Positions 1 to 56,642 of a DNA stretch of 64,000 nucleotides are shown here, piece by piece. The translations under genes and the position numbers were made by a program. The stretch comes from Malacoraja senta (Eukaryota). Each line of letters begins with the position of its first letter. The stretch's first letter is position 1. The stretch is taken from contig CM075989.1 in assembly GCA_038087875.1 (NCBI GenBank), forward strand, positions 17,424,001 through 17,488,000. The letters run 5' to 3'. Under the pieces are notes generated by a model. It had not been told where the DNA came from and did not search any database. It worked only from the letters and a program-made list of their open reading frames with translations.

Positions 1-1
1 G

Positions 2-461
2 GAGACCGCCGACGGGAAAAACCTTTGTACGGAACTGGAAATCACCAAATGTTCATCTATTCACAGGCTTTTAATAGTTTGTAATAATGTTAAGCGGTGC
101 TCTGATATTACAGGTGCATCATGGCCACATGTGACTGTGGTGAATTATGCGTATGAGTCCTCCACGCTGGATTCAATTTCTGCACAAGTGGCTGAAGCTT
201 TGAATGGAAAGCAAGTAAAATCTGTAGCTTTTGTTCTGTACAATCAGCAAGATGCGATACATATTTGCGGGGCTGGAGTGGTTCGGACACTCACGCCAAT
301 TTCTATCCACAAGCAATTAGCTGTGCGGAGATTCTTTAACAATATTGTGACCAACCACGTTGATGTGGAAGATTCAGATACCAGGATGGATATTCTGGGC
401 TGCACTGCCCTGATGACTGCAGACTTGGAGGAAGTCAAGAGGGAGCTGCAGAGTCTGACAG
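2..461 (+). CDS. Exon 1 (5'-partial): DUF4347-like domain
   Basis: Frame is open from nt 2: ETADGKNLCTELEITKCSSIHRLLIVCNNVKR...VVNYAYESSTLDSISAQVAEALNGKQVKSVAF...MDILGC...ELQSLTG. Donor G|GTATAT at 461/462, phase 1. Confidence 0.8.
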
Positions 462-3400
462 GTATATTTATATTATACATTTAACAGTATACCAAATATC
501 AGCTTTGATTTTATCAGAAAGTTATGAATTCAAGTGCTAGATGTTTGCAAAATCTACTCTGACACTTCCGCGATAGGGAGAGGTGTACTGTTTTAGGTGC
601 TATATTTCATTTGTTATTAAACCAAGATTCCACCTGTCCTTCTGGTGAGCACACCAAATAAATGGTAACGTACAGATTAAGTTGCGAGATGCCTAGACTA
701 CTAGTCCGATGATAATTGTTTGAATCCCTCCACCACGACTCAGATATTTCAATTTAGTTAATTAAATAAATCTGCAATGAAAAGATAGTAGCTGTAATGT
801 TGGTTATGAAAACACTGTCACCTCTGCATTAGAGAAACCAAATGCAGATTGGGTTACTACTTTGCAGAGCGGGTCTGACTCCAAGGTTTGGGCTTTCATT
901 TGTCTACCATTTTAATTATTCATCCCACTCCCTGGTTGACTTTGTTGTCTTTGGTCTGTGATACTACAGCAATAAAGCCCAACATAAGCTGGAGGAATAG
1001 CATCTCATCTGCCTTCCAGGAACATTGCAGTACTCAGAATTCAACCAGCTTTTTTCTGCTTGCATCAAAATCTGCCTCAAGTGTTTGGTATTCCGAGCAT
1101 TTTCTGTTGACTCCTACATCAGCTCTGTTTCATGTCTCACATGTTATCTGTTTTTTAAATCTGTTTTACTGTTTTCTCATTTTTCCATTTTTGATGAAGG
1201 ATCATTGAACTTAAACGATTCTCTCTCCGCAGACGCTGCCTGGCCTGCCAAGTATTTCCAGCACTTTCTGTTAATAATCTGATGTTCTACAGTCACTTTG
1301 TATTTATGGCACGGGCCTGATTAACCCACGGGCTGGAAAATGGCAGCTGGGAATTTGAACTTATTAAATAAATATGGATTACAAGGTTTTTATTGGGATT
1401 GATGATTGAAATCAGTGGATTGTTGAAAAAACCCCATATTAGATTGACAACACCCTTTAGGGTAGGCTACCGTTATTCTGTTTGTGACTCCTTTCGGTAA
1501 TACTATTGACTTTAATTGCTTTATGAAATAGCCAAGCAAGTCGTTCAATTCAATACTAATTAGGATGGGCAATGAATGCCAACAATCCCCAAAACTCAGA
1601 AAACCAAAATTGCTTAACTGGACATTATATATTTTCTGGGAAGTTGCCAGTATTTAGTTATTACAGTAAACAGAAGAATTAGAGAAATGCCTATTCAAGA
1701 GATCTTTTAATTATTCACCTGAGTTATTAAAATTTGGAACAATAATTAACTAACATTCTAAAGGGAAATAACTAACCAGTTTTTAACAAGCAATTAATAC
1801 TTGGCTCAACTGAAATTTCATCATGAGGAAATATGTTATTGTATCAGGTGTGTTCTTCTTAATCTTACTAATATTAAACCTCATTAAAAATGTGTTCATA
1901 GATACAGTGAAACATCACTGAAATAAATAGAAACAGGAAACTGCAGATGCTGGTTTGCAAAAAAAAGACAAAGTGCTGGAGTAACTGATTGCCTTAATTG
2001 TCCAGTGCTTACCAGGAAATGCGTGCTGTTCTCTGTATGAGTGCCACCAGTCTCAGGATGCCCGTGCAAATGCAGAGTTCTGGAACTTGCTGGCCATTCT
2101 GGTGACTTTCCATTTGTGCTCCAGCATCAGACTCTTCATGCAGTCCAGGAGCAGAACATGAACTTGTGCTAATTCCATAGCTGTCGCACAAGGGAACAGG
2201 CCGCCAGAGTTACACAAGGTGCAAGAACACAAGGTGCCCATGCATTAAAATGGAGAACGGCAACATAGGACTGGAATAGGAATTGGGTATAATGCCTGAA
2301 TTAATTGAGTTGACATAAATGTTTTAATGTGTTTCTATTTCTAATTTAGATAATTGATTTTAACAGTTTTTGAATATAAAGTTTAATATCAATTTTTAAT
2401 ATGAGTTAACTAGTTTTGTCAATTTTTGAATAATTATTTAAAACAGGGAATGGTTCATAATTGTGGTTTATAATTGTTGCATCCTATGTCTCAGCGCAGA
2501 AGGGAGACATTCAATCCATCAAATCTACATCTGCTTAATGTAATGCTGTCATTCCAATCCAGTCATTCTTTCCTCGTGGTGCTGCAAATTATGTCATGCG
2601 AGGTGCCTGTTCTGGACTTCTCATAAGAAGGCCTTACTGAATAGAGTTCAAGGGATGTGCATTAAAATGTACTAATTTGATACTTAGTCAAGTTGTCAGC
2701 AGTGGCTCAGCAGCGAAGAGAAGCGGGTATTTCTCTCACAGGTATGAGCAACTTGCTATTTGCAGTCCACCATAAGCAGAATGTTCTGACTCAATATATC
2801 AGCTACTTTATTAGTTTCCATCATTTACCAACATAGTTCTCAGTTGATCAGTGTTGGATAAATAGATAGAGTAAAAGAGCTTAGGAACAGTTCAACAAAC
2901 ATCCTCCAAATTCACCTTTGTTAGCAGCTGTAGGATAAATCCAAAGTCGATCGTATTCCAAAATGTTTTTGGAAATACATTATTGAAAGTGCTAATAATT
3001 CCCCTTTTTCTGCTAAGCACCTGCTGCGTCATTTATTATATTACTCCATGTTTTGGATCTCAATATGTGACTGGGGTCATTTTGAATTGCTTCTAATTAA
3101 ATTAAACTAGACATGTGGAGATTTTTTTTAATTGAATCAGGTTCAGTTGGCTGTGAGGTACAGTGGTGGAAAACAAAATATCTTTGAATCCACATGTTTT
3201 GATACCCCTCACTGACATGTTGCCTGCACCCTACCAAGCATGTCTCAGGCTTTGCTGCTATCGGGAAGTCCCCACCCATTTTATGCAAAAGCCCCTGACC
3301 TCAGGGATCAGATGTGTTTGGAACAGACTGCCAGTTTCCTGGAGTATCTCGGTGCGGTGATGGCAGTAGGACTGCCAGTTAATTAAATGAAACGAGGAAA

Positions 3401-6400
3401 CAACTGGCACACAACACCAACTAATGATCATTAAATAATATGTATCTAAGTGCTTATGTATAGTGATACTTGTACTGAACAATACACATCAACAGATTTC
3501 ACTGGACCTCGGTACGTGTGACAAATAAAGTACCTTACCGTATTAATAGTAAATGCAGAGGCTTTGCTCTGGTGGTTACGTATGTTGTCATTCCAGGAGG
3601 CCAGTGACCTTGCCACTTGACCTACACCCAGTTCCACCTCAGCATGTGGCTGTTCGTTTTTTTTATAAGGTATGCCAGGTTAATATGTCTTCAAAAACCA
3701 CTGAACATCTCGTGGTATTAAAGTGGAAATTGCCTGGGTCAAATCGCCTGTGTGTTCCCGTGTAGTTGGGAGAAAGGAACATCTTGCTGCTCACACATCT
3801 AATTTTTTGTGTAAAGTCCAAAGACCTTCTGCCTACTATTTGTTTCCTTCAGGCACCAGACTTAAACTGGCCACTATTACTTTGGCGGTGGAGTATCCAG
3901 AAACTTGTTATAGTTGGTCGAACTTCAAGGTTCTGTGAATTGTATTGCATTAATAAATTATGTTTTCTTTCCAGATAAATTTGCATAAAGTCTGTTAAAA
4001 CCACATTTGTTCAAACAGAATGCTAAATACTGAGGCTAATTTAGACAAACCTCAAAGTCCTTTGATAATTTCTTGTTAGGAACGGTTAAATAATATGTTA
4101 TTTCCCAGTCTAAGGCATAGAGAGCTACTTCAGGAGAAATAACACAAATTAGTGTTCAATCGCAATTTAAATTAAAGCTAGTGTTCATTAAATAAATTTA
4201 AATACAGCTCAAGTTAACATTTTGAACATTATTTATAATTAAGTAATAATTAAGCAATTATGCCTCTGAGGTCAAGACCTGTTAATTGTGCTAATCGGTA
4301 GGATGCAAAGTAATTTACTAATTACTGCTGTTATGCTAATCGTACACAGTACCCTAATTATAGGTTATGGGGAACTTCAGCATCACTGTCATGTTGCAGA
4401 GACTCCGTTGGTGTAAGGGGATATTTAGAGCCATTATTTGCTTAATTAAGCCACTGTACTAAAATAGATATGAGTGAAACATATAACACGCAACTCTGTT
4501 CTTCACAAAATCCCCACACTTGTCCCCAAAGCCTGTACAAAGAGGAATTTGCACAGGTATTCTTATCCTGTAGATAAAACTGTGGGCATGATGAGTGAAC
4601 TACGCTCCTGGTGTTTGTCCTCACATTGCCCTACAGAGCCCTAGTGCGTAGTGAGACCACACCTGGAGTATTGTGTGCAGTTTAGGTCCCCTAATTTGAG
4701 GAAGGACATTCTTGCTGTTGAGGGAGCGCAGCGTAGGTTTACAATGTTAATTCCCGGGATGGCGAGCCTGTCATATGCTGAGAGAATGGAGCGGCTGGTC
4801 TTGTACACTCTGGAGTTTAGAAGGATGAGAGGCAGATCTCATTGAAACATATAAGATTGTTAAGGGTTTGGACACGCTGGAGGCCGGAAACATGTTCCCG
4901 ATGTTGGGGGAGTCCAGAACCAGGGGCCACAGTTTAAGAATAAGGAGTAAGCCATTTAGAACGGAGACGAGGAAACACTTTTTCTCACAGAGAGTTGTGA
5001 GTCTGTGGAATTCTATGCCTCGGAGGGCGGTGGAGGCAGGTTCTCTGGATGCTTTCAAGAGAGAGCTAGATAGGGCTCTTAAAAATAGCAGTCAAGGGAT
5101 ATGGGGAGTAGGCAGGAACGGGATACTGATTGGGGATGATCAGCCATGATCACATTGAATGGCGGTGCTGGCTCGAAGGGCCGAATGGCCTACTCCTGCA
5201 CCTATTGTCTATCGTTTATTGGACAAGAGAGGAACGTATCTCTGTGGACATGTAGTGTAGGCACAATGTAGCAAATAATAGTCGTCAAATAGTAGATTGC
5301 CCAGCTGCCATGTTGAATTACCAATCGAGCAAAGTAACCATATATGCTACATCTACAGGCTCTCTGAAGAAGGGTCTTGAAAATCACCTATTCATTTTCT
5401 CTAGAGATGCTGCCTGACCCACTGAGTTACTCCAGCATTTTGTATCTATCTTCTCTCAAGAGTGACTCTGCTTTATTAATTTATTTCAAAGTGATCAGAA
5501 GAAAATCTGAGCCAGGGTTTTCTTTTTTCAGGTGTTCCTGTTGGTATGACAAGAACCGTGCTGGGCAACGAGTTGGTGGCAGGTCCAAACCAGGTGGCGG
5601 GAGATGTAAAGATGCACATCCTGGATCTCTACTGTGAAAGCGAGAAGTTGAAACGGCCGCATCCCCAAACACTGGCAGAGTTTGAAAAGATACACATAGT
5701 GGGAAAAGGTGAGCTTGGAGACCCTACTACATGGCAGCGCAGCGGTAGAGTTGTTGCCTTACAGCACCAGAGACCTGAGTTCGATCCTGACCACGGATGC
5801 TGTATGGAGTTTGTACGTTCTCCTGTGACCGCGTGGACTTTCCCCGGCTGCTCCAATTTCCTCCCATACTCCAAAGACGTGCAGGTTTATAGGTTAATTG
5901 TTTTTGGTAAAGGTTATAAATTGTTCCTGGTGTGTAGGATAGTGCTAGTGTACGGGGATCACTGGTCAGCATGGACACAGTGGGTCGAAAGGCCTCTTTC
6001 CGCACTGTATCTCTAAACTACACTACCTCATCTTCCCACCAGGCCCATAGGACCCACACCCTCCATCACTTCCTCCACCAACCTTGCAACTGTGGGGCTG
6101 GTGGATAATGTGCACAATGTGTTCTGTTGTGCCTGAACACTGTGTGCAATAGAATTTCACTGCTGGGAGGGCTCATTTAAAATGGGTGTGTGTCCCACAC
6201 AAAATCTTTTCACCTTCTCCTGAAATAGTCAAGTTGGTTTAATTGCTGTCATAATTCTGAGCGTTTTCCGTTTGGCGCCAAAGGAATTATTGGTAGCCAT
6301 TATCCATTAGTCGCAGTAGTACAAGTGAGCATCTGATCTCTTTCCTAGAATATCATCGCTAAAATGTTTCACAGGTCAATTAATATGAGTACTCAAAAAA

Positions 6401-18400: not shown

Positions 18401-21400
18401 TAAGGCAGCAACTCTACCGCTGCGCTATTGTGCTGCCCTATATGTGCCTTGTCCAGCATCTGAAGTATGCATCAAGAGAAAGTTGCTCTTTGTTATTGCA
18501 GTTAGATACATATACAATGCAGAATTGTCTGAATGTGCCCAGATTTAATGGAAATCCCAGTTGTTTTATGGTTCGTGAAACTTGGTTACTCACTGTTCAC
18601 AGTACCTAACGTGACATACAAAAATAATCTTGGAATGCTTTGGGTGTAAGTTCCAGTTTAAGGCTGAAGAAAAGTTTACCCTGTCACTGTGTCCATTCTA
18701 GATCGCTGTATCTGACAAGCACATGATAGCAGTCACTGCAGATCGAGCAGTGTACACATGGGGAATCAATCTGAAAGGCCAGCTTGGTCATGGAGATCTG
18801 CAATCACGTTCACGACCTCAGCTGGTGGAAGCCCTCAAAGGAAAGTTTATTGCCAGGTAATAAAGTTTACGAGCATAAAGTTCAGAGGCTCTGGACCAAG
18901 GCAGCCTGTGAAGGGAAAGGACATTAATGGCAGATTTATCTCCTTGTCTCTGATAGTTGTGCATTTTGTGCTGTTCAGCACGGTGAAAGTTCGCCGTGTT
19001 TCAGCAGAGTATTGTTTACTAATTTATTCCTTCTTCAGTATTTCCCCTGTTAGATTAATCTCACACCACTGAAACAGTTTTATAAGTAAATGCCTTTCCA
19101 TTCCTGTTATGTTGGTAATTGTTGGATTCATAAAATTGACATTTTTTTTCAACAATAGAGACTTTGAATCCTGTTAAAAACTGAGTCTAAGAGATGAGAT
19201 TCCTCCTAGTAGGCAAAGCAGATCAATTTCAAAAGACGTGGTCTACGTTTTTGGACCTATTACAAGCATGAGGTGCAATAGTAATTTAGAAAAACAAATA
19301 AATAAATAAAAGGTATCTGGACCTGGTAATGGGAGGTAAAATAAAAATAGACTTGGTTGGTAGTTCCTTCTCTATGAAGTATGGTATAAGAGTCATAATA
19401 GAGCGATTGTTCCTTCTTTCTTTCTCTTTTTTTTCTAGGGTCTATTTTCTAACTTTACTTCCTTCTCTAACCTCTTTTCTAAGGGGCTTTCTTTTCCCAA
19501 CACTCTTTTGCACTTCACAACCTTTGCGCACTTTCTTCACTTTTCTTACTTCTTTCTTTTTCTTTCTTAAAGTTTAAAAAAGTGAAGCGGTACAAAAAAT
19601 GTATTAATATATACGTGTTGTACATTACTGTAATCTACCGTACTTCTAAAAAATAAAAAATAAAAAAAAAAAAAAAAAAAAAAAAAACTGAGTCTAGAGC
19701 TCAAACAGAATATTTGACAGAATGATGTCGTTAAGTTCTATGGTTTGAAGTGTTAGTCAAAGTGGAGAGACCTCCTCTCATTTTCATTACTGGGTGTGTA
19801 GTTTGAATTTACTAGATATGTTCCTTATCGCAAAAGAGTTTCCAATCTACTGATTGACCTTAATTATGAGTACTGGAGAAAGAGAATTAAAGTCTGAGGT
19901 ATGAGGAGGAATAACATGCTGTGTTTCAAGAACACGAGAAAGGTCTTTAACAATATTAAAATACTAGAACAACATGGATAAGAACAATTTAGAGGGATAT
20001 GGGCCAAACGCGGGCAGGTGGGGTTAGTGTAGATGGGGCAACTCAGTCGGCCTGGGAAATATAGGTCTGTTTCCATGCTGTATGACTCTATGACTCTAAG
20101 TCTAACCCACTACAGATTGCTGGGTGAAGATGATTAAGGTCTATTGCTAGATTGTCAAAAGCTAAAAGTGTGGATTAATTCTATGGGGACAATCAGATTT
20201 GGAAAATGGTCATGGGAAGAGAGAGATGATCATGTATGAGTAGGCGAGGTTGTAGGGTAAATCCGTGAGATATTAAGAGACTTAAAAAGTGGGAAAGAGG
20301 AGCTTGTGTTTTTATTAATAAAATGGTGGGAGGAAGCCTTTGCATGAGTATTTCTGATTGTGCGTACACACATGCAGGAGATAATGAATCAGAATTCATC
20401 TTTGACAGTAATACAAATTAAGGAGTAATGCAAGAACCCTCCAGTTACCCATCCTGCTTTATTTGAAGACACTAGAGTGGATGTTATAAAAATCTGAATG
20501 TTAAAAAAAATGCTGGAGTAATTCAGCAGGTCAGGCAGCATCTATGGAGGAAAAGAGTAGATGACTTTTCGGGTCGGAACCCGACTTCAGACATATCAGA
20601 AACATCACCTATTCTTTTTCTCCAGAGATGCTGCCTGACCCACTGAGCACACCAGCGTTTTGTGTCTATCTTCGGTATAGACCAGCATCTGCAGTTCCTT
20701 CCTGTGTATTTCATGCTGAATGTTATTTGGAGAAGGTGACAGGCTGATGATATGCTCGTTTTGCACGACTATCCAAATAGAAATTGTGCCCCAAGATTAA
20801 ATTCTTTACTGTCTGAAGAAGGGTCTCGACCTGAAACGCCACCCATTCCTTCTCTCCAGAGATGCTGCCTGTCCCGCTGAGTTACTCTACCATTTTGTGT
20901 CTATCTTCAGTTTAAACCAGCATCTGCAGTTCCTTCCTACACATTAAATCCTTTACTCTTCCTCTTTAACGATTGTAAGGAATGTTTTCCCAGGGCCTGT
21001 GCTGGAGAAGGATTCAGTGTGTTTGTCAGTGACAATGGAATTGTAATGACCTCTGGAGATGGAGCCCAAGGCTGCTTGGGACACGGCGATCTCTTCAGCA
21101 CCTCCAGACCGTGTTTGATTGAAACCCTGCTTGGCGTAAACGTCCAGGTCATTGCCTGCGGTCGACACCATGTGGTCTGTGTCAGCGGAGACGGCGAGGT
21201 GAGCAACCTGTATTTTTCTTTCCTTGCAATCCTTGCAGTCGTTAAAGATGAAGAGTCAGAAGTTTGAGTATAGTTTTGAGCAAGGGGAAGCCTTCACAGA
21301 AAGGATTGCCTGTCGGTTCTACAATAAGTGTCGTTTTACTGCTGGTCTCCATTGATGATTATTGCTGTTCACCACCAGTGAGATCAATGTGATGAAGAGT

Positions 21401-23615
21401 AAGAAAGGAAGATGCTTCTAGGATGTAGAGCTGGCAAAGGTTATCCAGGCAGGGTAGGACATGACCACAGAGAGATTTGGAAATGAGGCAGAAGACTTTG
21501 AAGATATAGCTGAGTCAAGTGGAAGCATAAGTAATATATAGTGCAACACTTTAAACGTACATATCTCATATTGTTTAAATTTGTTGCCGTTCATTTTCCC
21601 GCACCTGAGCAGAACTCTGAAGTTAAAGTGCAGGATGATTATAAACAGACAAACATCATAAACAGCTGCTGAGCAGATGCTGTGGACACTGAAGCAAAGG
21701 TGGAGGCGTCTAGATTGATCTTGGGCTACCTTGTCATATGGTTCAAGTAAAGGTGGGCAAAAACCATTGCACTGTGCTGGATACTGCAAGATCTGACAGA
21801 AACAGAAGAGCATGTAATGTTATGATGAGGAACATGTGCCTGCAATAGAAATCACGCAATAGTTATTTTGCTAGGCAGAGAGGTGGGGTTACCTTGCAAA
21901 ATCAATAAAAGCACATGCACTCAGGTGATTGCAAACTACTGCACATTTAATAAAAGATTATAGAAATTAATAAAATGTGAACAGCCTCATTTTGTGCTAC
22001 TTTCTTGTTTATGATGGGTATGAATATTCTATGGTATTGTTAGTGATATCAGATGATAACACCAGGAGGATTGTAAAGGAAGGAACTGCAGATGTGGGTT
22101 TAATCCGAAGATAGACACAAAAAGCTGGAGTAGCTCAGCGGGTCAGACAGCATCTCTGGAGAAAAGGAATGGGTCTGAAGAAGGATCTTGACCTGAAACA
22201 TCGCCTATTCCTTCTCTCCAGAGATGCTGACTGACCCACTGAGTTCAAGTTCAAGTGAGTTTATTGTCATGTGTCCCTGATAGGACAATGAAATTCTTGC
22301 TTTGCTTCAGCACAACAGAACATAGTAGGCATTGACTACAAACAGATCAGTGTGTCCAGATACCATTCTATAAATATATATACACACATGAATCAATATA
22401 CTGATAAAGTGCAAATAACAGTTAATTGGCTAATAAAGTTCAGTGTTTTGTCCGAGCCAGGTTTAATAGCCTGATGGCTGTGGGGAAGTAGCTATTCCTG
22501 AACCTGGTCGTTGCAGTCTTCAGGCTCCTGTACCTTCTACCTGAAGGTAGTAGGGAGATGAGTGTGTGGCCAGGATGGTGTGGGTCCTTGATGATACTGC
22601 CAGCCTTTTTGAGGCAGCGACTGTGATAGATCCCCTCGATGGAAGGGAGGTCAGAGCCGATGATGGACTGGGCAGTGTTTACTACTTTTTGTAGTCTTTT
22701 CCTCTCCAGGGCGCTCAAGTTGCCGAACCAAGCCAGCATTTTGTGTCCAACAACAGGAGGATTGAGTGATATAATGGACCGCGTTGTTACACTGCCAAAA
22801 AGTAGCTGTGTTTAATGCTGTTCTCTTCCTTTGAGGCAACTATATATAAATGCCTTGTCCAGCACACTCTGCATTTGGCATTGTATTCCAGGGGTTAACT
22901 TTCCAAGAGTACTTTTAAACATTGCTCAATTCTCTTATCTGAAGTGACAGCTTAATGCGTGTTTTCAAATAAACAGGAATGACAATGCTCAAGCCTTTCC
23001 ATTCATTAACCTTAATTTCTGTGCCCAAGTTACTGATTTGTGTTCCACTGCACACTACGAGTATTGGATCATAAAATTTGCTCCATAATTTCCATGTTAC
23101 CATGAATGTTCAATGGGATTATTGATGCTATTATATACCTCGATGGGTTCCAATTCTCTGCTGGTTCCATTTATTCTGTTCGCTGGAGTTATTGCCATTC
23201 TTACGCTGAAGATAATGGGCAGATTTATTATCTACTGGACAGGCTGTAAAAACCAGCCTACCATCTTCATGTTTTGTGAAGTTATTGGTTTTATATTCAT
23301 CACTTGAATGATTCTTCCCAAAAGCATTATGATAGCAATCTGAATTTATCATAGAAATTCTCTCTACCAATGCACTCACTGACAAACGCACTTTCACACA
23401 TTCACACACGTGCACGCACACGCACACACACACACACACACGCACACGCACACGCACACGCACACGCACATACACACACACACACACGCACACGCGCACG
23501 CGCACACGCACACGCACACGCACACGCACACACACACACACATACACGCACACACATAACACACATACACACACACACGCACACACACACGCACACACGC
23601 ACACACACACACACA

Positions 23616-23656
<41 letters not shown>

Positions 23657-26600
23657 CTCTGTTGCTCATTGTTGTTCATTCATGCACAATGTGCAGAGAC
23701 ACACATGAACCTGCAGACCCTCACACATGCCATAGTCATATACACTCACACACATATACAAGCATGTTCTCTCTCACACATGCATGCTCACCCACTAACT
23801 CATTGCCTCATGTACACATGCCCTTAGCACATGCACTTGCAAGTGATATACACGTATCTCAAATAAACATTTTTATTTATGAACACTCTAAAACATACAC
23901 GAATACACACGCACACAAAATCTTTCCTTTACACACTCACTCTCACTCACTCACTCACACTCACTCACGGTGTGCACACACACACACAGTAATTCTCTCT
24001 CTCTATCTGTCACATAAGTGTAGAGGGTAGAGCATGCCTGGAACACACTGTTGTGGATGATGCTGGAACATGGTGCTGGGGTGGAGGCGATATTTGATAG
24101 TGGCATTTAAGAGGCATTTGGATAGGTAAGTGGATATGCAGGGAATGCAAGGAAATGGATTATGTGCAGACAGATAAGAGTTGATCTTGGCATCATGTTC
24201 AGCACGGACATTGTGGGCTGAAGGTCCTGTTCTTGTGCAGTACTGATTCATATCTAGGTTCCTACCCAAAGCCAGTGAATGTTGGATATGGTCACTAAAT
24301 GAAAGGGTAAAATCTTGAAAGAGCTGAGAAATAAGCAGATAAGCAGAAGTTTACATTAAATGTGGCCTCCCTCTACGCTGAAATACCGATGGCTCTGTCA
24401 AAAGTGGATTATTTCACATTTTATTTTGGGTCTGTGAAAATGAAGTATGAAACCACGTAGTGTAATATATCTATTGACTGTGGGTCCTGAATTTGTCTCG
24501 GCATAAATCTGAACATCACAGCTAATTGACTCGCTCTGGAATAACTGAATTGAACTCAGTTCAAGATCCGTCCACTTCTAAACATGGCTACTGTTTTTTG
24601 AAACAATGAAATTCAGCTGTTTCATTGTGTTCCAGGTGTTTTCTTGGGGCAGTGGAAAATTTGGCCAACTGGGGCTTGGGAATGACGTCAATAGCTCCTT
24701 GCCAGTGAAAATAACTTTTGAGGAGCAGATCTTTGTAAAAGACGTGAAATGTGGCTTAGATGGAACCATGTTTTTAACAGGTATGTACATGACAAGATTC
24801 AATTATTATATCTCAACCATTTAATGACACTTAAACCATTACATGTATCCAAAACAGCAATTTTCTAATAGAATCAAAGTACCAGCTCAAAGTGAAAGTA
24901 TTAGGGGCGGCACTGTAGCACATTGGTAGAGTTCCTGTCCTACAGCACCAGAGACCCGGATTCAATCCTGACTATGGGTGTTGTTTGTACAGAGTTTGTA
25001 CGTTCTCCCTGTGACTGCGTGGGTGCTCCGGTTTCCACCCTGCCGCCATATAAAGGAAAGACCTATATTTTTATTTTGAATGGATGAGCCCTTCTCCTGT
25101 TATAGTTCAACCGAAGAACAGTTTTAGCTTTGCAGTTAGCACTTCTTGAGAATCTTATTCTGTGCTCAATAGATAGCGGTGGCCCTCTGGCCTGTGGTAA
25201 TAACCAATACAATAAACTCGGCTTGAATGAAAGACGAGGCCTTCTCATGCAGATGACAACGCTGTTTGCAAGAGTGAGTATATTTCATCCTTCGATATTC
25301 TACTTAGTGTTATAGACAAAGTAGCTACAGATATTTCATGCATGGTCAGATTCTTTTTAATTCGTGCATGATATGAAAACTATTCCTTTCGGCCAAAAGG
25401 CATGATTGAGTTCATTTTCAGTGACCTCTGACTGCTGTAAATCTACACCTGAGCATTTCTAAGAGCGCTGTTCCATTCACAAACTGCTGTATGGTAAGGA
25501 TAGGGTTTCTTTCAGAACAGTAGCTGTGAGCAAATTTTGAAATCTACTCCCATGTTTGCTTTCTGTGGATCAGCAGAGCTAAGCTTCCTACTTCACTGGT
25601 CAAAGGAATGCACAGAGCTATTGACGGGAGAGGGGGGGGGGGGGGGATAGGGATTCATGATGGATTGTTGAGCACAGAATTACGCAGTGAAGGTATAATG
25701 GCTGAAAACTATGTGGGCGGAACAGTGGCGCAGCAGTAGAGTTGCTGCCTTACAGCTCCAGAGACCCAGATTTGATCCGGACTATGGATGATGTCTGTAT
25801 GGAGCCTGTACATTCTCCACGTGATCGTGTGGGTTTTCTTCTGGTGTTCCAGTTTCCTCCCACGTTCAAAAGACGTGCAGGTTTTTAGGTTAATTGGCTT
25901 CTGTAGACATTCGGAAATATCCAAAGATCGACACAAAAATCTGGATTAACTCAGCGGGACAGGCAGCATCTCTGGAGAGAAGGAATGGGTGACGTTTTGG
26001 GTCGAGACCTAATCAGGCCTAGGAGACTTATCTACCTCATATGCCCTTAGGACGTCTAGTACCTCCTCAACCATAATACAGACTGTCCTCAAGACATCTC
26101 CAGTAACTGTCCCAAGTTCCCCAGTCTTCATATCTTTCTCCTTGTTAAAAGTAGAGGATAAATACTCATTGCCCATCTCCTGTGGCTCCACACAAAGATG
26201 ACCACTCCAGTTTCTAAGTGGCCCCATTCTCTCTTTAGTTACCCTCTTTCCCTTAAGGTACGTCAAATCTCTTAGGATTTTCCTTAATATTATCTGCCGG
26301 AGCTATCTCTGCCCCCTTTTTGACCTCCAGATTTCCTTTTTATGTATGCTCCACAGTTCCCAAAACTCCTCCAGGGATACACTTGATCACAGTACCCATA
26401 CCAGGCCATGCCTCCTTCTATTTCCTAACCAAATTTTCTTGCCATCCAAGCTTATTTACTCTGACCTGCCTTGCCCTTCATCCTAACTGGAACATGCATG
26501 GCCTGAACTCTTGACATCACACTTTTAAAAGCACCCCACTTTCATTGCCCCCAAACAACCCCCATTGCCCCCAAACAACCTACTCCAGTCAATGTTTAGC

Positions 26601-29600
26601 AAGTTCTGTCTATTAAGTTGAGTCCCAGTGATGTCTCTCTCCACATAAGGAATATGTTCAACATTGGTTTCTCATCTCAGAACCTGTAGGGAAAGAATTT
26701 GAATTGTGGAGTAATTCCCTCTGGTGATTTTAATTCTTTGCTTGCATAATTTGTAGTGTTTTAAGCATATCCTTGATGGAATAACCTACACTGGTCAAGA
26801 AGTGGTGGGCAACTTTGAAGGTACATAAAGGGGAATGCAGAGACCAGCAGGAGATCTAGGCTGCACAACAGCTGGGAAACGGCTCCTCCTCTAACCTCGT
26901 ACTGTATCCGTTGATCTCGGTGTGGACTCCTGTATATCAGCGAGACCAAGCGCAGACCTGGCAATCATTTCGCTGACTACCTACGTTCATTCCGCCTTGT
27001 CCTATGCTATCTCCTGGTTGCAAAAAATCTTAACTTCCCTTCCCCTTCCCATACTGAAGTTTCTGTCCTGGGCCTCTTCCATTGTCAGAGTGAGGCCACA
27101 TGCAAATTGGAGGAACAGTACCTTGTATTTCGCTTGGGCAGCTTACAACCCAGCGGTATGATGTTGATTCTCTAACTTCAAGTAACCCTTGCATTCCCTC
27201 TCTCTCTCTCTCTCCCCCTCCACCACCCTAGTCATCCTGATAGTTCCACTGTTTGCATAATCACTTTGTTATTACCTCTTCCACAGCCAACAATGGACCA
27301 TTGTGGGCTCCACCTTTCCTTGGTCATCAGTGCCGGCTCTGATTTGTTCTGAACGTTTCATGCCTATAGTTCCTTTCTCCCCTGACTCTGTTTGAAGAAG
27401 GGTCTCGACCCAAAACATCACCTATACCTTTTCTCCAGAGATGCTGCCTGACCCGCTGAGTTACTCAACATTTTGTGTCTATCTTCGTAAGTTTATCACA
27501 GCAGGGGCTTGGTGATGAAGCAATCCTCAAACAAATCGGAAGATGGGGCCCAACCCGAAGCGTCACCTATCCATGTCCCCCAGACATGATCCCTGACCCG
27601 CTGAGTTACTCCGGCACTGTGTGTCTTTTGTAAGCCAGCACCTGCAGTTTCTTAAGTTTACAATCTCTTCTGTTCCTATTGATGTTGCAGACCGATGTTG
27701 AAGGCAGAAAGGTTCCCACCCTGGTGAAGGCACTGAGAAACCAACGTGTGCGGGATGCTGTGCTGGGTCCCTCACACACCATTGTACTGGTGGAGCCAGG
27801 AAATATCTATACCTTTGGGAGGAACACAGAGGGACAGCTTGGCACGGGCAACACTAAACCCTATAAAGTGCCTGTGCATGTGAAGCAACTGCTGCATAAA
27901 ACCATCACTGTAGGTATTAATTTAAACCAGAGTTATGAATTTGTTTTGCATTGAAAGATCTTTATCTTTGGTAGTGTAAGTGCTTTATAAAAAATAAATA
28001 TCATTAGAATAAATAACATTTTCAGGCTGTGGTTGGCTTCTCGTATCCATTCTGTTATCCATAACTCAAGCCCATGTGTTGCATCAGAATTAAACATAAC
28101 TGCCTAGGTAGTAGAATTCACCATCGGTCCATAAAACAAATGCCATATTTAGACCAAACACTCAGCTGAGCGATCTTCAAAAAAAGTGACAGATATGGGG
28201 AAAGTTTCACCCTGATAGCTGCATTAAAACAAGAATTTGGTTTAGTTTAGATATACAGAGTGGAAACAGGCCCACCGAGTCCACGCTGACCATCGATCAC
28301 CCCTGCACTAGTCCTATGTTTTCCCACCGGCATCCTACACAGTAGGGGCATTTTACAGAAGCCAATTAATCTACAAACCGGCACGTCTTTGGAATGTGGA
28401 AGGAAACCAGAGCTCCTGGAGAAAACTCACGTGGTCACAAGGAGAATTTACAAACTGTATAGACCGCACCCGTAGTCGGGATCGAACCTGGGTCTCTGAT
28501 GCTGTCAGGCAGCAACTCTCGCACTGCACCACTGTGTTCTCCGGCCATGTGCAGTCATTGCATGCTGGGTTCAGGTTTGCCTCCTCAGATGTCCAAGATA
28601 ATTTTTTATAGAGAATATATATTTCTCATATGTATTTGCAACATAGAAACAAGCCACATGGCCCATCTGTTTTATCCTGGCTGGCACAACAATCTCATCG
28701 GTCCCATTGCCCTATTTCATTTCTGTAGACCATTCTTGTTAATGTGCCCATCACTTCCCCACTGACTTTCCTGTCACCCACCTACTTACTGGTCAGGGGC
28801 AATTTCACACCCAGACTAATCAACCAGCATGTCTTTGGATTGCGGGAGGAAACGGGAGCACCCAGGGAATAACCTGAAACATGCAAACTCCACACGGGCA
28901 GCCTCAGAAGTCAGGATCAAACCTGAATCACGAGATCTGTGCAACAACAACAAAACCTGCTATGGCACAATCTCACTGAATTGCTAGTTGAATCGTGTGC
29001 CCTCTAAGTAGGAGGGTTGTATGATCTATGTGCTCATTCAGACAGATAGTCCAAGGTATTCCTCATTGTAGCATCCTGCCTGCCTCATTCTTACCGATAA
29101 TAACTTCTCAATCTTGCCAAAAGAATCCATTTTAATGGAATTTTGGATTATTATAAATGTAAATACTTATTTTACAAAATAGATTAGTCCCCCTTAACAT
29201 CGGATAATTGTTTTGTCCATTTTAAATTCAAGATGAATATATTAAAGGACACAAAACAATCAGCAATCAGCAGCACAAATTATTCTATGTTTGGAAAGCA
29301 TTTAATTTATTTTCTCAATAATGGTTTCATGCATCATTTCATGAAAATGATTTCAGTCATAGTGAAGCTCAATGTTTCTGTTCTGCAGAGTAAGTTCAAT
29401 TTTAAAGGAAAGATATGGAGATGGCTTATTGTACAAAGGAACCATCAGTGGGAATAGGATGTGATACTTTGACCTGCTCTGCCTGGAGTTACAACATGCC
29501 TGATTCTACGCCTCAACCATTTTACACCAAATCCATTTCTGATTCCCTTCCGACCCAAAAAATCTATTGTTCTATTGGGGCAAAATTGATTGATCAAAAT

Positions 29601-32600
29601 GCATGAATATACACAGGAACCAGGCATACGTGACCTAGAAGAGACTGAATACTCAGAAACCTCTCATTCCCTCCCATCCTTATTCTAGTCTTACGTGGCT
29701 GATATCCTGCCCTTTGGGTTTGCACTCTGCAGCTTCTCAGCATTTATCTTGTCAGTCTATTTGAAAATTGTTAATATCGAGCTCATGGATTACGATATTA
29801 ACCTCAATGAGAAGAGAAAATGGCAGGTATTTGCCATTGATGTTCAATCAATTTGCAATTGACCTGTGGCATAAAAATATCAACTAATTGAGTAGAGTTT
29901 GATTTAGACCAGATCTCTGTGGTTGAGTTGAAATCATATTTCATTTTGGAGCACTTATGGGTGGCACAGTGGTGGAGTTAGTGGAATTATGTTCAGTCCT
30001 GAACTCTGGTGCTGTGTGTGTGGAGTTTGCATATTTCCGTTGGTGGCTGAATGGATTTCCTCCAAGTGCCTTGTTTTACTCCCACTTCTCAAGGATACGC
30101 TGGTTGTCCAATGTGAGTTGCCCCGAGGTGAGTGGTGGAATCTGGGAAATGTTGGGAATATGAGGACAATGAAATGGGGTTAGTGTGGGATTAACATAAA
30201 TGGGAAAATGATGGTCAGCAAAAGGATCTGTGTGCATACTGTATGACTCCTCTCAGTCCTTCCATTATAAAGTGGAGTGAAAGCCTGAGTTGTGCAGAAT
30301 GATTCAACGTGTACAAAAGAATCGATGGTAAAGTTTATGACAAAACCAAATTTGAGAGCACAGCAGACAGTGAGTAAGGATATACAGTGGCTTGCAAAAG
30401 TTTTCATACGCCTTGAACTTTTCCACATTTTGTCACGTTACAACCACAAACGTAAATGTATTTTATTGGGATTTTATGTGATAGACCAACACAAAGTGGT
30501 GCATAATTGTGAAGTGGAAGGAAAATGATACATGGATTTCAAATTTTTTTACAAATAAAAAACTGAAAAGTGTCGTGTGCAAAAGTATTCAGCCCCCCTG
30601 AGTCAATACTTTGTAGAACCACCTTTCGCTGCAATTACAGCTGCAAGTCTTTTGGGGTATGTCTCTACCAGCTTTGCTCATCTAGAGACTGAAATTTTTG
30701 CCCATTCTTCTTTGCAAAATAGCTCAAGCTCAGTCAGATTGGATGGAGAGCGTCTGTGAACAGCAATTTTCAAGTCTTGCCAGAGATTCTCAATTGGATT
30801 TAGGTCTGGACTTTGACTGGGCCATTCTAACACATGAATATGCTTTGCTCTAAACCATTCCATTGTAGCTCTGGCTGTATGTTTAGGGTCGTTGTCCTGC
30901 TGGAAGGTGAATCTCTGCCCCAGTCTCAAGTCTTTTGCAGACTCTAACAGGTTTTCTTCCAAGATTGCCCTGTATTTGGCTCCATCCATCTTCCCATCAA
31001 CTCTGACCAGCTTCCCTGTCCCTGCTGAAGAAAAGCATCCCCACAGCATGATGCTGCCACCACCATGTTTCACAGTGGGGATGGTGTGTTCAGGGTGATG
31101 TGCAGTGTTAGGTTTCCGCCACACATAGCGTTTTGCATTTAGGCCAAAAACTTCAATTTTGGTCTCATCTGACCAGAGCACCTTCCTCCACATGTTTGCT
31201 GTGTCCCCCACATGGCTTGTGGCAAACTGCAAACGGGACTTCTTATGGCTTTTTTTCAACAATGGCTTTCTTCTTGCCACTCTTCCATAAAGGCCCGATT
31301 TATGGAGTGCACGACTAATAGTTGTCCTGTGGACAGATTCTCCCACCTGAGCTGTGGAACTCTGCAGCTCCTCCAGAGTTACCATGGGCCTCTTGGCTGC
31401 TTCTCTGATCAATGCTCTCCTTGCCCGGCCTGTCAGTTTAGGTGGACGGCCATGTCTTGGTAGGTTTGCAGTTGTGCCATACTCTTTCCATTTTCGGATG
31501 ATGGATTGAACAGTGCTCCGTGAGATGTTCAAAGCTTGGGATATTTGTTTATAACCTAACCCTGCTTTAAACTTCTCCACAACTTTATCCCTGACCTGTC
31601 TGGTGTGTTCCTTGGGCTTCATGATGCTGTTTGTTCACTAATGTTCTCTAACAAACCTCTGAGGCCTTCACAGAACAGCTGTATTTATACTGAGATTAGA
31701 TTACACACGTGGACTCTATTTACTAATTAGGTGACTTCTGAAGGCAATTGGTTGCACTGGATTTTATTTAGGGGTATCAGAGTAAAGGGGGCTGAATACT
31801 TTTGCACACGACACTTTTCAGTTTTTTATTTGTAAAAAAATTTGAAAACCATGTATCATTTTCCTTCCACTTCACAATTATGCGCCACTTTGTGTTGGTC
31901 TATCACATAAAATCCCAATAAAATACATTTACGTTTGTGGTTGTAACGTGACAAAATGTGGAAAAGTTCAAGAGGTATGAATACTTTTGCAAGCCACTGT
32001 ATATTTGCAGGAGGACATGGACAGGATAGTAAATTGGCCAGGACATTGGCAGATACAGTTAAGGAGAGTGAGTAATCAACAAGGTGACAGATGCTAGATT
32101 ATCAGTGGTAAAGAGCAAAGGAAGATGCAAAAATACTCCTCATGTGAGATTATTAGGTTATGGAGCAATTAGTGCTAGATTAAAAAAATATGGGAAAGGA
32201 CAGATCCCTTGACAACAAAAAGGCCTCCACTGTGATGTAAATTTTGTAAAATGAATGTATTGCTCATTAACACTTTGAAAGTTAATACTTTCTGTAATAA
32301 ATTGCATTAATAAATTACGTGATGCTTTTCTATTTCCTGTGTTATATACAAGCCTGCTTCTCTTTGATGTACGGAGGGATCTTGGGATGCAAGTCCATAG
32401 GTTCCTGAAAATGGCAACACGTAGAAAGGATGGCAATGAGAGCGTAGGCATGTTTGCCTTGATTGGTTGGGGCGTTAAGTATAAAATTAAAGAAGTATTG
32501 TTGTAGCTAAATAAAAACTTGGTTGAGTCACATTTGAAGTATTGTGTGTATGTTCTGGTTGCTACATTACAGGAAGGATGTGATGGCTTTGGAGAGGGTG

Positions 32601-35600
32601 CAGAAGAGATTCAGCAGGACTTTGCTTGGATTAGAGAGTGTTAGCTACATGGAGAGGTTGGACAAACTTGTCTTCTCTGGAGTATCAGAGGCTGATCGGC
32701 GATTCTACATAAGGATATAAAACAATGAGAGACATAGTAGATAAGGTAAAAATAGCTAGAATCTTTATCACAGGATGGAAACGTCAAATACTAAAGAGTG
32801 TATGTTTATGGTCAGAGAGGGAAAGTTGAAAGGAGATGTGCTGGGCTAGGTTTTTACACAAAGAGTGGTGGGTGCCTGGAACATGCTGCAACAAATATGA
32901 TAGTGGCATTTAGTGGAGCTTTTAGATAATCACATCGACATGCAGGGAATGGAGAGATTTGGATTACATGCAGGTAGAGGAGATAGCTTAATTTTGCAAC
33001 ATGTTTGGCACAGACATGGTGCGGAAGCTTAACATTATTGCACAGTACGTAGAGAGCATTGGTGTTCATCGCAGTATAGAATGTCCAAAGACATCGTAGG
33101 GTAGAAAAAACAGCATTCTGCTGTGTGGACATTTTCTACTGGAAAGAACATTGGTACTGTCCACATATTTAATTGCTGTGTTCAAACTCAACTTGTACGA
33201 TTCAACACACTCTAAATTGTCCCTAGTATGTGTGGGCTTGTGTTAACGTGCAGGGATCGCTGGTCGGTGTGGACTCGGTGGGCCGAAGGGCCTGTTTCGA
33301 CGCTATCTCTAAACTAAACTAATCATGCATAACGTGTGAGGGAATTCCGACATACTTTACTCCGAATCAAGCGTTGGAATACTATAATATGGTATTACAC
33401 CCTCGTGCAGGGGCCGGTTAAAGAGCTGTGTACTGGTTCACAGGAGGGTAATTTCAGAGCCTTTGTGTCTCTCTCACTTTCTTTCAGATGATCAGCTGTG
33501 GAGAGACATTCAGCGTTGCTGGAACAGACGATAATAATATCCTCTTCTGGGGCACTAAGTCCAGGTCGGTACTCTCCCACAACCCATCGAGTGTAGTCAC
33601 AGTGTATCGGACAAGTGCTTCTGCCAGCGCAGCATCACCTTCAAAGCCCCTTATTGGAACTGCCAGTCACAAACAAAGTGAGAAACATGGTGAAAATGAA
33701 AAGCAGCTTGTGGGAATCAGTACCGCCAAACCTCCTGATGACGAACCAGAACCACCACATTCACAGGTTAGCTTCTATTACCTCGTGAGAATGTATCGCA
33801 TATCTTTATTTAACTGTGCCTCAAACCATTGCAACTAACAGTAGCAATATCTGATTCTTCCGAATTGTAAGAGCTCCATCTATACTATTGTTAACTATGG
33901 ATGACATTGGTTATAATGTGATGTGCTCTCTCCTGCAGAAGGACAATAGTTGGTCAAAAGCTGTTTCACTGGACGAGCGCATGACATCAATTAAAGGCCA
34001 GAGGAAAGCTATGAGAGGTGATTTGTTGAATGCACTATGACCACTGCCAATTGATTTGAACTGCCTCCGATTTTTACCACAAGTCTCAATATTGTTTATT
34101 CTTCACCTTGAATCAAGTATTCGAGATTTCATCAGAAACATGAATATGTTGATCAGATGAAAATGCAAGAAAGTTTTGCATATGCGTGTGTACTGAAATA
34201 CCAAGTCTAAATTCTACCTAAACGAGTGTGTCATCTACTTGCTGCAGTGAATTCAGTATGATTGTTCCTTTCCATAAACGATTAATCCAAGTAAAATTCT
34301 CGTGATATATTTGGTAATTCGGGCCATACCATCGACAGACGACAGCAGACACAGTTGATGGAAGGTTGGGCCTGTTGCCATCTCAGTTGTGATGCACTTT
34401 GATACATACTTGGGACTATTTTAAAGACTTCCTGGATGTCACGTGTAATGACGTGCTATATGCTGTAATGACTTGCTAATGTCTGTTATAAATATGAGCC
34501 AACTATCTGATCAAGGCTGTCAGCATCATGTTCCGATAGGTTACGGCCTTTCCTCTAGTCCTGCTGGCTTCCCTCATTCTATTCTCCATGAACGTAAGCT
34601 CTTCCAATCCTCTGCTGTCCATATTCTAAGCTATACTGCATTCAGTCCCCACAACATCCCTGTGCTTTTTGACTAACTTGGCTTGTTTAAGTTAGTCTTG
34701 TTTTAAAATTGTCATTCTTGTTACTTTTTAAATTCCTCTATGGTTTCAAACCCCATCCCTGCCCTTATCATGTAATCTTCTCCAGCCTAGCATTATTCTG
34801 AGATGTCTGCAATCTGATTCCATTCTCTTGCTCATCCCTGAATGTAATTGTCCCATCACTGGACGTAAGGCCATCACTTTCCAAAACCCTAAGCATGAGA
34901 GTTCATTTCCTAAGGCGCGCATCCTTTCCATCTCTCTGTTTTCATTCCAAATACATTTTACTATCTTTCTCTTTGCCGACACTTTTGACCATAGAGATAT
35001 ACTGCATGGAAACAAACCCTTTGGCCCAACTCGTCCACGCCTACCAAGATACCCATCTATGCAAGTTTCATTTGCCTGCATTTGACCCACATCGCTCTAA
35101 ACCTTTCCTATTCATGTACCTGTCCAAATTTATTTTAAATGCAGCTATTAAATCTGCTTTATATGTTATTTGACATCAACCTTTACTTGATAAAGGTTCT
35201 TTGGGTCATGTTGTAACATTACAGGTGATATATAAATGGAAGTTGATTTTGATGTTTCAGTTTCAACGTATTGTCATTGCCTTGGCTACACTCAAATAAA
35301 GGTCACTGGTTAACCGCACAACACACCTCCATACTCCCTCAGCCACATTAGATTCACCTGTGTTTGGGTTTTTTTCATTGTTTTTCGTCTCCACTTCCCC
35401 AGTTCAAGCAGATCCATGCACATTCAACCTCCTTGTGTATCCCTCTTAATACTAAACCTATTTATTATAAACTCCTTGAAGTTTTCCTCTAATTGACAAA
35501 CATACAGTCACGGATGCAAACATATCCAGTCATTGCCACATATTAAAGCTGCCAATGCGCCACATAACATGGTGTTAAATTACTTTAGGTTGAGCATAGA

Positions 35601-56601: not shown

Positions 56602-56642
<41 letters not shown>

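Follow-up and report, generated by a model that had tools for sequence, protein, structure and literature searches.

The Malacoraja senta window (the whole 64,000 nt stretch analysed here, contig CM075989.1, positions 17,424,001 to 17,488,000) carries on its + strand a gene in which a NIMA-family kinase is likely preceded by a spliced-on DUF4347-like domain, and this gene likely belongs to an old third lineage of NEK8/NEK9-type kinases that has been kept by sharks and invertebrates. The order of domains is leader, DUF4347-like domain, kinase, RCC1 propeller, a motif resembling the NEK6/7-binding segment of NEK9, a coiled-coil-like tail and a CaaX box. The DUF4347-kinase-RCC1 architecture is present in databases, and no published description of it was found in the literature searched.

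Exon structure at the 5′ end

Inspection of the sequence showed an exon 1 reading frame without stops between nt 2 and nt 484 of the window, with a donor site (ACAG|GTAT) directly after nt 461; the window thus holds the 3′ portion of the first coding exon, at 1..461. The acceptor site, a pyrimidine tract followed by AG, ends at nt 5531, and exon 2 (5532..5708) completes the DUF4347-like domain with its last strand (ending near 5632), continues through a conserved linker and opens the kinase with its first strand and the beginning of the Gly loop. The intron (462..5531) lies within the DUF4347-like domain, is of the GT-AG type and in phase 1 with a split Gly codon (G+GT), and the joined product remains open into kinase exon 3. 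An earlier note on this DNA had proposed this in-frame phase 1 splice of exon 1 to the kinase N-terminus, together with a frame open from nt 2 that would add about 200 aa before the Gly loop; our count is 210 residues between nt 2 and the Gly loop, and every sequence motif quoted in that note is present in the translation. As 5 out of 12 nearby donor/acceptor pairs likewise gave an open frame, in-frame joining is weak evidence when taken alone, and the exon 1-exon 2 junction was instead fixed by homology, since the sequence ..TG|V[PS].. spans the equivalent junction in 12 of the 18 cartilaginous-fish protein clusters, and the DUF4347-like domain and kinase are continuous in the alignment of invertebrate orthologues. 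The other six clusters consisted of one with an insert, one without exon 2 and four beginning at or near exon 2. From these canonical sites and models we infer the 461|5532 splice in Malacoraja senta. Four sequencing runs compared with this place had the character of repeat-dominated DNA skims and listed no joint here, which is neutral with regard to the splice.

The suggestion that the first nucleotide of the window completes an ATG GAG start did not hold, as the preceding bases read ...GAGAG and lack the AT. The frame is open across 284 nt upstream of nt 1, with the first in-frame ATG located 221 nt before nt 1 (G000:C13:17423780), where the models of related species also start; this ATG is the likely start codon and extends the leader by 74 codons. 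Residues 1–95 form a poorly conserved leader that is predicted to be disordered (pLDDT <65 for residues 1–90 in the catshark model), and the first part of the DUF4347-like alpha/beta domain follows at residues 96–227 (65..461, pLDDT 90.1).

The DUF4347-like domain and its dyad

The DUF4347-like identity of this domain, first proposed from its sequence pattern, was supported by Pfam matches of orthologues, by the ESM Atlas and by a fold match to Tce1/PA0256. With the curated Pfam cut-off for DUF4347 (PF14252) of 24.6 bits, 11/14 orthologues passed (25.9–39.5 bits), these 11 being from invertebrates or holozoans and pre-selected by a database flag, while the three unflagged proteins gave no pass and a single weak match; the orthologous segments can be aligned along the entire domain. 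The cut-off was reached by none of the seven cartilaginous-fish proteins (two weak matches, 17.5 and 15.8 bits), with no DUF4347 match in the two skate models, the best shark matches falling short at E 0.0036 and 0.012, and none in either window exon when scanned singly (0/2). The ESM Atlas returned DUF4347 as top match for exon 1, at 0.92 and with 190 shared features.

Among 48,161 chains, Tce1 of Pseudomonas aeruginosa (9qpe_G) was the top match for both AlphaFold models, the first with Z 10.1 (rmsd 3.6, 151 residues aligned, runner-up Z 7.3) and the second with Z 8.7 (rmsd 3.1, 125 residues aligned, runner-up Z 6.7), at a sequence identity of just 10–11%. Tce1 is PA0256, which contains DUF4347 (PMC8262886); it is further described as a putative cysteine protease whose dyad is His186/Cys240 and whose own top fold match is the TcdB protease domain (PMC13323088). 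A possible link to the caspase-like alpha/beta fold of clan CD/CPD-type cysteine proteases runs through Tce1. In direct comparison, toxin cysteine-protease domains, caspase-1 and legumain (3ho6, 3d6f, 5obt, 8yja) matched the models at Z 5.1–6.1, level with ordinary Rossmann folds. Foldseek with the catshark model gave flavodoxin/Rossmann-type and kinase matches only, and a VIA structure comparison gave no match with Z of at least 8, with Tce1 absent among the matches listed in both; a PDB sequence search gave no useful match. The DUF4347-like domain was present in 23 of 24 homologues collected by kinase sequence alone. The likeness of the fold to that of a cysteine protease, the ancient, family-wide nature of the fusion and the placement of the kinase in a third lineage go beyond the earlier note. 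On the ECT2L link mentioned in that note, the literature searched gave no paper, and a PF14252 search of the Malacoraja senta genome matched nowhere, controls included, and so has no bearing on it.

At the expected catalytic His site, the family alignment places Tyr154 (TAC, 239..241), and the nucleophile-like Cys208 (401..403) follows 54 residues later, the same spacing as between His186 and Cys240 of Tce1. The His site was placed by alignment, spacing and end register, the latter being consistent in that the model Cys and Tce1 Cys240 are each located 19 residues before the aligned end. The predicted change from His-Gly to Tyr-Asn and the retention of the cysteine of the GC pair are thus both seen in the family alignment. 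In 105 family rows (isoforms included), His is found at the Tyr154-equivalent site in 53, among them every shark row whose exon 1 is intact, and Cys in 69; His and Cys occur together in 38 rows, and His-Gly plus Cys in 12, with the structural Asp preceding the Cys retained in 104/105. In skates Tyr replaces the catalytic His, and given this substitution and the combination of His and Cys in just 38/105 rows, the head domain is probably a pseudo-protease. A non-catalytic module, as the note had envisaged, is the best, though inferred, reading for Malacoraja senta. The skate domain further differs from Tce1, a secreted effector, in being situated within a eukaryotic kinase. DUF4347 hereby gains a testable eukaryotic context, as naturally occurring members that have the dyad can be set directly against those that lack it.

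A third RCC1-NEK lineage with a CaaX box

The kinase exons are located between 6835 and 14110 (about 6835–6950, 8194–8325, 11477–11678, 11840–11959, 12164–12281 and 13820–14110) and encode a NEK-type kinase domain in which the catalytic Lys, helix-C Glu, HRD, DFG and activation-loop Thr are all intact, followed by the exons for the RCC1 beta-propeller (18702..33784). The kinase domain of NEKs is expected at the N-terminus (PMC2031824), but here it begins at residue 278, behind a folded domain. NEKs are described as kinase-first and tail-regulated, and a protease-like head combined with a lipid-anchor signal departs from this design, an arrangement retained in lineages ranging from unicellular holozoans to sharks.

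Phylogenetic analysis separated a third group (SH-aLRT 99) from the NEK9 and NEK8 groups (both 100), and the rooted kinase tree placed NEK9 as its sister group with a support of 87; both were quick trees without bootstrap, and support for the third group was just 84 in the kinase-only tree. The third group extends back to unicellular holozoans. We rejected an identity of the skate gene with NEK9, as it falls outside the NEK9 group, and a separate NEK9 is present in both Heterodontus (a shark) and Diadema (an urchin); it was likewise rejected as NEK8, since it falls outside that group too and Malacoraja senta has its own NEK8, located on C6. A search for NEK9 in the Malacoraja senta genome did not find it, which does not establish absence, and the RCC1-exon matches in this genome are presumably to genes resembling HERC. 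No bony vertebrates were present among the named matches in the third group, and the matches listed for a 'nek12' search included no such gene from a vertebrate. The third lineage appears to have been lost in bony vertebrates, and among vertebrates this gene can apparently be studied in cartilaginous fishes alone.

The skate gene shares the kinase, RCC1 propeller, P-x-W-L-x-x-E-L motif and coiled-coil-like tail with NEK9 (Nercc1), but NEK9 rows have only 27–44 residues before the kinase, no DUF match and no S-x-[VI]-CaaX end. NEK8 (NPHP9), which is linked to cilia, shares the kinase and RCC1 propeller, but starts its kinase from about residue 4 and has neither the head domain nor the W motif. 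Uncharacterised proteins of Lingula (P0016), Nematostella (P0053) and Owenia (P0024) share both architecture and lineage with the skate gene. A Caenorhabditis bovis member has a degenerate head domain and a CaaX box, and dipteran and choanoflagellate members, unlike the skate gene, are without the head domain. C. elegans NEKL-1 and Drosophila Niki, the presumed orthologues of the C. bovis and the Bactrocera protein, respectively, would probably fall in the third lineage; reviews place them under NEK8 or NEK9. The database label 'Nek8-like' is found on many third-lineage members. Many such invertebrate 'Nek8-like' and 'Nek9-like' labels, and probably also Niki and NEKL-1, denote the third gene, and these genes would therefore be misleading as models for the human NEK8/NEK9 disease genes.

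Downstream of the propeller, the sequence PTWIRNEL (36124..36147) corresponds to the motif P-x-W-[LIV]-x-x-E-[LI], which is present in 109/138 homologues versus 2/100 non-kinase RCC1 proteins. Its spacing agrees with P809, W811, L812 and L816 in the NEK6/7-binding segment of NEK9, for which F821/I822 are needed for NEK7 binding (PMC4632185); these last two residues lack an exact counterpart in the skate protein, and the P, W, I/L and L positions agree. At 52246..52365, an exon encodes part of the C-terminal region whose pattern, as judged by eye, resembles a coiled coil. The last coding exon (56649..56747) ends in ESKICAVM-stop; this is a CaaX box in which X is Met, position −3 is Ser and position −1 is Ile, a feature missing from the earlier note. 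Such a box terminates 114 of the 138 homologues (control: 1/100 non-kinase RCC1 proteins), and within these 114 there is Ser at −3 in 109, Val or Ile at −1 in 100, and M, Q or S as X in 110. Both skate database models end without it, one by an early stop and one by splicing onward from inside the box. A Ser(−3) together with a hydrophobic −1 residue is the signature of high-affinity PDE6D ciliary cargo, and the skate protein carries it (for the −1/−3 rule and the X rule, see PMC5512577 and PMC9857354); Ser(−3) is not strictly required for ciliary entry, and FAM219A has Ser(−3) and was unseen in cilia (PMC9857354). The PDE6D ciliary cargoes INPP5E, GRK1 and NIM1K have the same C-terminal arrangement, but are unrelated to the skate protein, for which prenylation and PDE6D binding are predicted.

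Proposed function and competing readings

In the reading that we favour, albeit by a little more than even chances, the protein would be an active NIMA-family kinase, with its CaaX end farnesylated and PDE6D/ARL3 delivering it to the ciliary membrane, and it may pass a signal to NEK6/7 via the NEK9-like motif. The N-terminal DUF4347 domain with its cysteine-protease fold would serve as a non-catalytic binding or regulatory module, by docking, partner binding or ligand sensing. The head domain adjoins the N-lobe of the kinase because the conserved linker is short; a prediction of the head-kinase complex that used no alignment scored 0.00, which says nothing for or against docking.

We consider it very improbable that exon 1 is not joined to the kinase in Malacoraja senta and is instead a relic or untranslated, with the protein beginning at the in-frame ATG at 5546 in exon 2, which is the start in some database models and is in line with the four of 18 cartilaginous-fish models beginning at or near that exon. 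Exon 1 is open over 248 codons, its splice sites are canonical exactly at the junction used in 12/18 models, and the DUF4347-like domain needs exon 2 for its last strand. In addition, the domain part is better conserved than the leader, both versus the two skate relatives (93–94% against 84–85% identity) and versus sharks and rays (69–77% against 41–63%). A different alternative, which we regard as unlikely, is that the head domain acts as a cysteine protease wherever His and Cys are kept (sharks, horseshoe crabs, corals and some annelids), cutting itself or a partner, for instance by clipping of the leader as a kinase switch, with activity lost in skates and many molluscs. The occurrence of both His and Cys, or of His-Gly plus Cys, across several phyla and the Tce1-like dyad spacing are consistent with this, as is Tce2, presented alongside Tce1 as a putative cysteine protease with the dyad of Tce1 and a Cys required for yeast toxicity (PMC13323088). 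However, independent breaks of the dyad, with the domain itself retained, are seen in skates, molluscs, nematodes, tunicates, sponges, ctenophores and the two unicellular holozoans, sharks have His-Asn rather than His-Gly, and Tce1 is itself described as a putative protease (PMC13323088).

A wider scenario, which we offer as speculative and rather doubtful, is that animals ancestrally had three RCC1-NEK kinases, not two, the third being a ciliary kinase with a farnesyl anchor, under the control of a cysteine-protease domain like that of bacterial effectors. This domain would still cut where His and Cys are kept, would have turned into a pseudo-protease repeatedly, skates among the cases, and would have been lost with its gene in bony vertebrates, with Niki and NEKL-1 as members. 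With regard to location, the kinase could also be anchored in membranes by its CaaX box and yet act outside cilia, at the plasma membrane, endosomes or mitotic membranes, with the head domain as a general scaffold. A CaaX box alone suffices for membrane binding, worm NEKL-2/3 are described as acting in endocytic traffic, and the gene has been retained in nematodes and dipterans, groups with few ciliated cells. We nevertheless hold this to be improbable and prefer delivery to the ciliary membrane, as the Ser at −3 in 109/114 homologues with a mostly hydrophobic −1 residue is the signature described for high-affinity PDE6D cargo, kinases of the NEK8/9 type have links to cilia, and a NEK8/9-like RCC1 gene (ao18, which may be this or another paralogue) is expressed in the apical ciliary organ of Nematostella (PMC4300403).

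Exon 1, its junction and the start codon

As the earlier note had described, the frame of exon 1 in the window (C13:17424001–17488000) is open from nt 2, with no stop codon until nt 484. A GT donor directly follows nt 461, the acceptor AG ends at 5531, and exon 2 (5532–5708) is joined in frame in phase 1 (LQSLTG/VPVG) and remains open into kinase exon 3, giving 210 residues from nt 2 to the Gly loop, close to the 200 or so originally estimated. The open frame is in itself little proof of the junction, as 5 of the 12 donor/acceptor pairs nearby also yield one, and the junction is instead fixed by homology, as it is shared by 12/18 cartilaginous-fish clusters of database protein models; the remaining six have an insert (one), skip exon 2 (one) or start at or near exon 2 (four). 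Based on these models, we are highly confident that the skate gene uses the 461/5532 junction. The closest relatives of exon 1 are skate proteins (94% identity over the exon). The ATG GAG start suggested previously had to be abandoned, as inspection of the upstream bases showed GAGAG preceding nt 1; the frame opens 284 nt upstream of nt 1, and its first in-frame ATG, 221 nt upstream, is the start of the relatives' models.

Exon 2 is symmetrical (177 nt) and is skipped by one Mobula model (P0006), which would delete the last strand of the domain preceding the kinase (head domain) and the first kinase strand. Extra exons at 29689–29835 and about 3590–3655 in a Rhinoraja model are unused by other models and are probably prediction noise, and intronic simple repeats (CA, CT, poly-A) are located at 23417–23655, 56608–56639 and 19648–19687.

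Identity and catalytic dyad of the head domain

Pfam searches with the single exons of the window gave no match, and among seven cartilaginous-fish proteins the only DUF4347 matches were sub-threshold, in two. The DUF4347 cut-off was passed by 11/14 orthologues tested, these 11 having been flagged beforehand and picked for it, with the three unflagged ones below cut-off; as a less biased test, a head-domain profile matched 23/24 further homologues collected by kinase alone. In the ESM Atlas, DUF4347 clusters ranked top for both exon 1 (0.92, 190 features) and the whole head domain of the Amblyraja protein (0.87). AlphaFold models of a catshark N-terminal fragment (head domain pLDDT 88–98) and of the skate's own exon 1 (pLDDT 90.1) both showed an alpha/beta sandwich, for which the Pseudomonas aeruginosa effector Tce1 (9qpe_G) was the only match with a Z of at least 8 among 48,161 chains compared (catshark: Z 10.1, rmsd 3.6, 151 aligned; exon 1: Z 8.7, rmsd 3.1, 125 aligned). 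Tce1 (PA0256) contains DUF4347 (PMC8262886). Toxin protease domains, caspase-1 and legumain reached only Z 5–6, level with unrelated folds, and Foldseek alone missed the link. Pfam on orthologues, the ESM Atlas and the fold match thus support the DUF4347 assignment of the earlier note, and the head domain is almost certainly DUF4347-like. The Atlas look-alikes also include chordate NSMF clusters (score 0.84; 10% of members with DUF4347), and 71% of the top cluster for the Amblyraja domain is viral, which we regard as leads only.

Tce1 has been described as a putative cysteine protease, its His186 and Cys240 aligning with the TcdB protease-domain dyad (PMC13323088). The corresponding skate residues are Tyr154 and Cys208, 54 residues apart as in Tce1 and each directly following a strand in the model, so that the reported change of His-Gly to Tyr-Asn with retention of the cysteine is indeed present; sharks have His-Asn. 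Of 105 aligned rows (out of 107, isoforms included), 53 carry the His, 69 the Cys and 38 the complete pair; 12 have His-Gly together with the Cys, and an Asp four residues N-terminal of the Cys site is conserved in 104. The head domain is 69–94% identical among cartilaginous fishes, versus 41–85% for the poorly conserved leader (residues 1–95). The dyad was lost repeatedly while the domain was kept, and this conservation pattern therefore points to a role independent of catalysis. The skate head domain is very probably devoid of protease activity, while dyad-intact members may retain it.

A third group of RCC1-NEK kinases

The gene extends to nt 56747 and encodes a kinase with intact motifs, an RCC1 propeller, a long low-complexity stretch and a coiled-coil-like tail. 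Identity with NEK8 was rejected because the M. senta genome carries a separate NEK8 on contig C6, and identity with NEK9 because Heterodontus and Diadema each have a NEK9 besides their member of the third group. The three groups were set apart in a quick tree built from 29 rows of kinase and RCC1 sequence (SH-aLRT 99, 100, 100), and a kinase-only quick tree (64 rows) gave support of 84, 100 and 96 and placed the third group next to NEK9 (87). Proteins labelled 'Nek8-like' in dipterans and Caenorhabditis were placed within the third group; the head domain is degenerate but kept in C. bovis, and absent from dipteran and choanoflagellate members. Searches of the M. senta genome found no NEK9 exon, though the shark Heterodontus has NEK9, which could be due to a gap in the assembly, a missed match or loss. 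Three NEK8 kinase exons are present in tandem duplicate about 14.3 kb apart (C6:537212–558077, L021–L024), with identical translations where both copies are seen, representing a local duplication or assembly artefact, and an intronless NEK-type frame of 422 residues on a long branch (C7:21378362–21379150, L014) is a retrocopy or divergent NEK.

Searching with the head domain and kinase N-lobe returned 113 proteins, from taxa including sponges, ctenophores, cnidarians, acoels, many protostomes, echinoderms, hemichordates, amphioxus, a tunicate and cartilaginous fishes, and the head-domain search also matched the unicellular holozoans Pigoraptor and Chromosphaera. The window gene is a real, ancient variant of RCC1-NEK kinase, and the fusion is not skate-specific. 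No bony vertebrate or cyclostome was present among the 98/113 named rows, nor among the 108 named rows of the 120 top-ranking kinase matches (390 in total). As these kinase matches fall from cartilaginous fishes (84–100%) straight to invertebrates (≤76%), the gene was likely lost in bony vertebrates, judging from protein database entries (about 670–2570 residues) rather than genome searches. In the ribbon worm Lineus longissimus, several copies (P0032, P0116, P0117) combine head domain and kinase without RCC1 repeats or CaaX box.

NEK kinase domains are described as N-terminal with rare exceptions, and Nek8/9 as a single subfamily (PMC2031824). Reviews treat NEKL-1 and Niki as homologous to NEK8 or NEK9. 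The DUF4347-kinase-RCC1 architecture is already visible in database annotations. The literature searched, mostly outside subscription journals, contained no description of a DUF4347-NEK fusion, of an RCC1-NEK with a CaaX box or of a third lineage, and the DUF4347 papers found do not appear to concern eukaryotic kinases; the variant is apparently undescribed.

The C-terminal tail and a possible ciliary role

The last exon terminates in ESKICAVM-stop. A C-x-x-x end was found in 114/138 homologues (truncated models included), with Ser at −3 in 109 of these, Val/Ile at −1 in 100 and Met, Gln or Ser as X in 110. Controls showed such an end in 1/100 non-kinase RCC1 proteins, 1/7 NEK9 and 1/6 NEK8 rows, the latter two without the Ser(−3)/hydrophobic −1 signature. 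According to PMC5512577 and PMC9857354, Met, Gln or Ser as X points to farnesylation, and Ser(−3) together with a hydrophobic −1 is the hallmark of cargo that PDE6D binds with high affinity and that ARL3 releases within cilia, a rule that is not absolute (PMC9857354). Prenylation of the protein is accordingly predicted with good confidence from this signature. A second motif, P-x-W-[LIV]-x-x-E-[LI], was present in 109/138 homologues and 2/100 controls; it matches the spacing of P809, W811, L812 and L816 of NEK9, residues reported as needed for NEK7 binding (PMC4632185), whereas F821/I822 have no exact match.

The analysis shows how the domains are arranged, that the kinase motifs are intact and the dyad is broken, that the CaaX box is conserved and that the gene belongs to a third group. 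Beyond this, we propose a mechanism in which the protein would be farnesylated at the CaaX box and delivered by PDE6D to the membrane of the cilium, where the kinase would signal, possibly via NEK6/7, with the head domain, attached by a short conserved linker to the kinase N-lobe, acting as a putative non-catalytic binding or regulatory module. A ciliary site of action is moderately favoured by these motifs, and the mechanism as a whole has slightly better than even chances. A GT within the CaaX codons could serve as donor to an exon at ~57705 (56739–57758), and a Rhinoraja model (P0002) does splice onward from these codons, from which a non-prenylated isoform would result.
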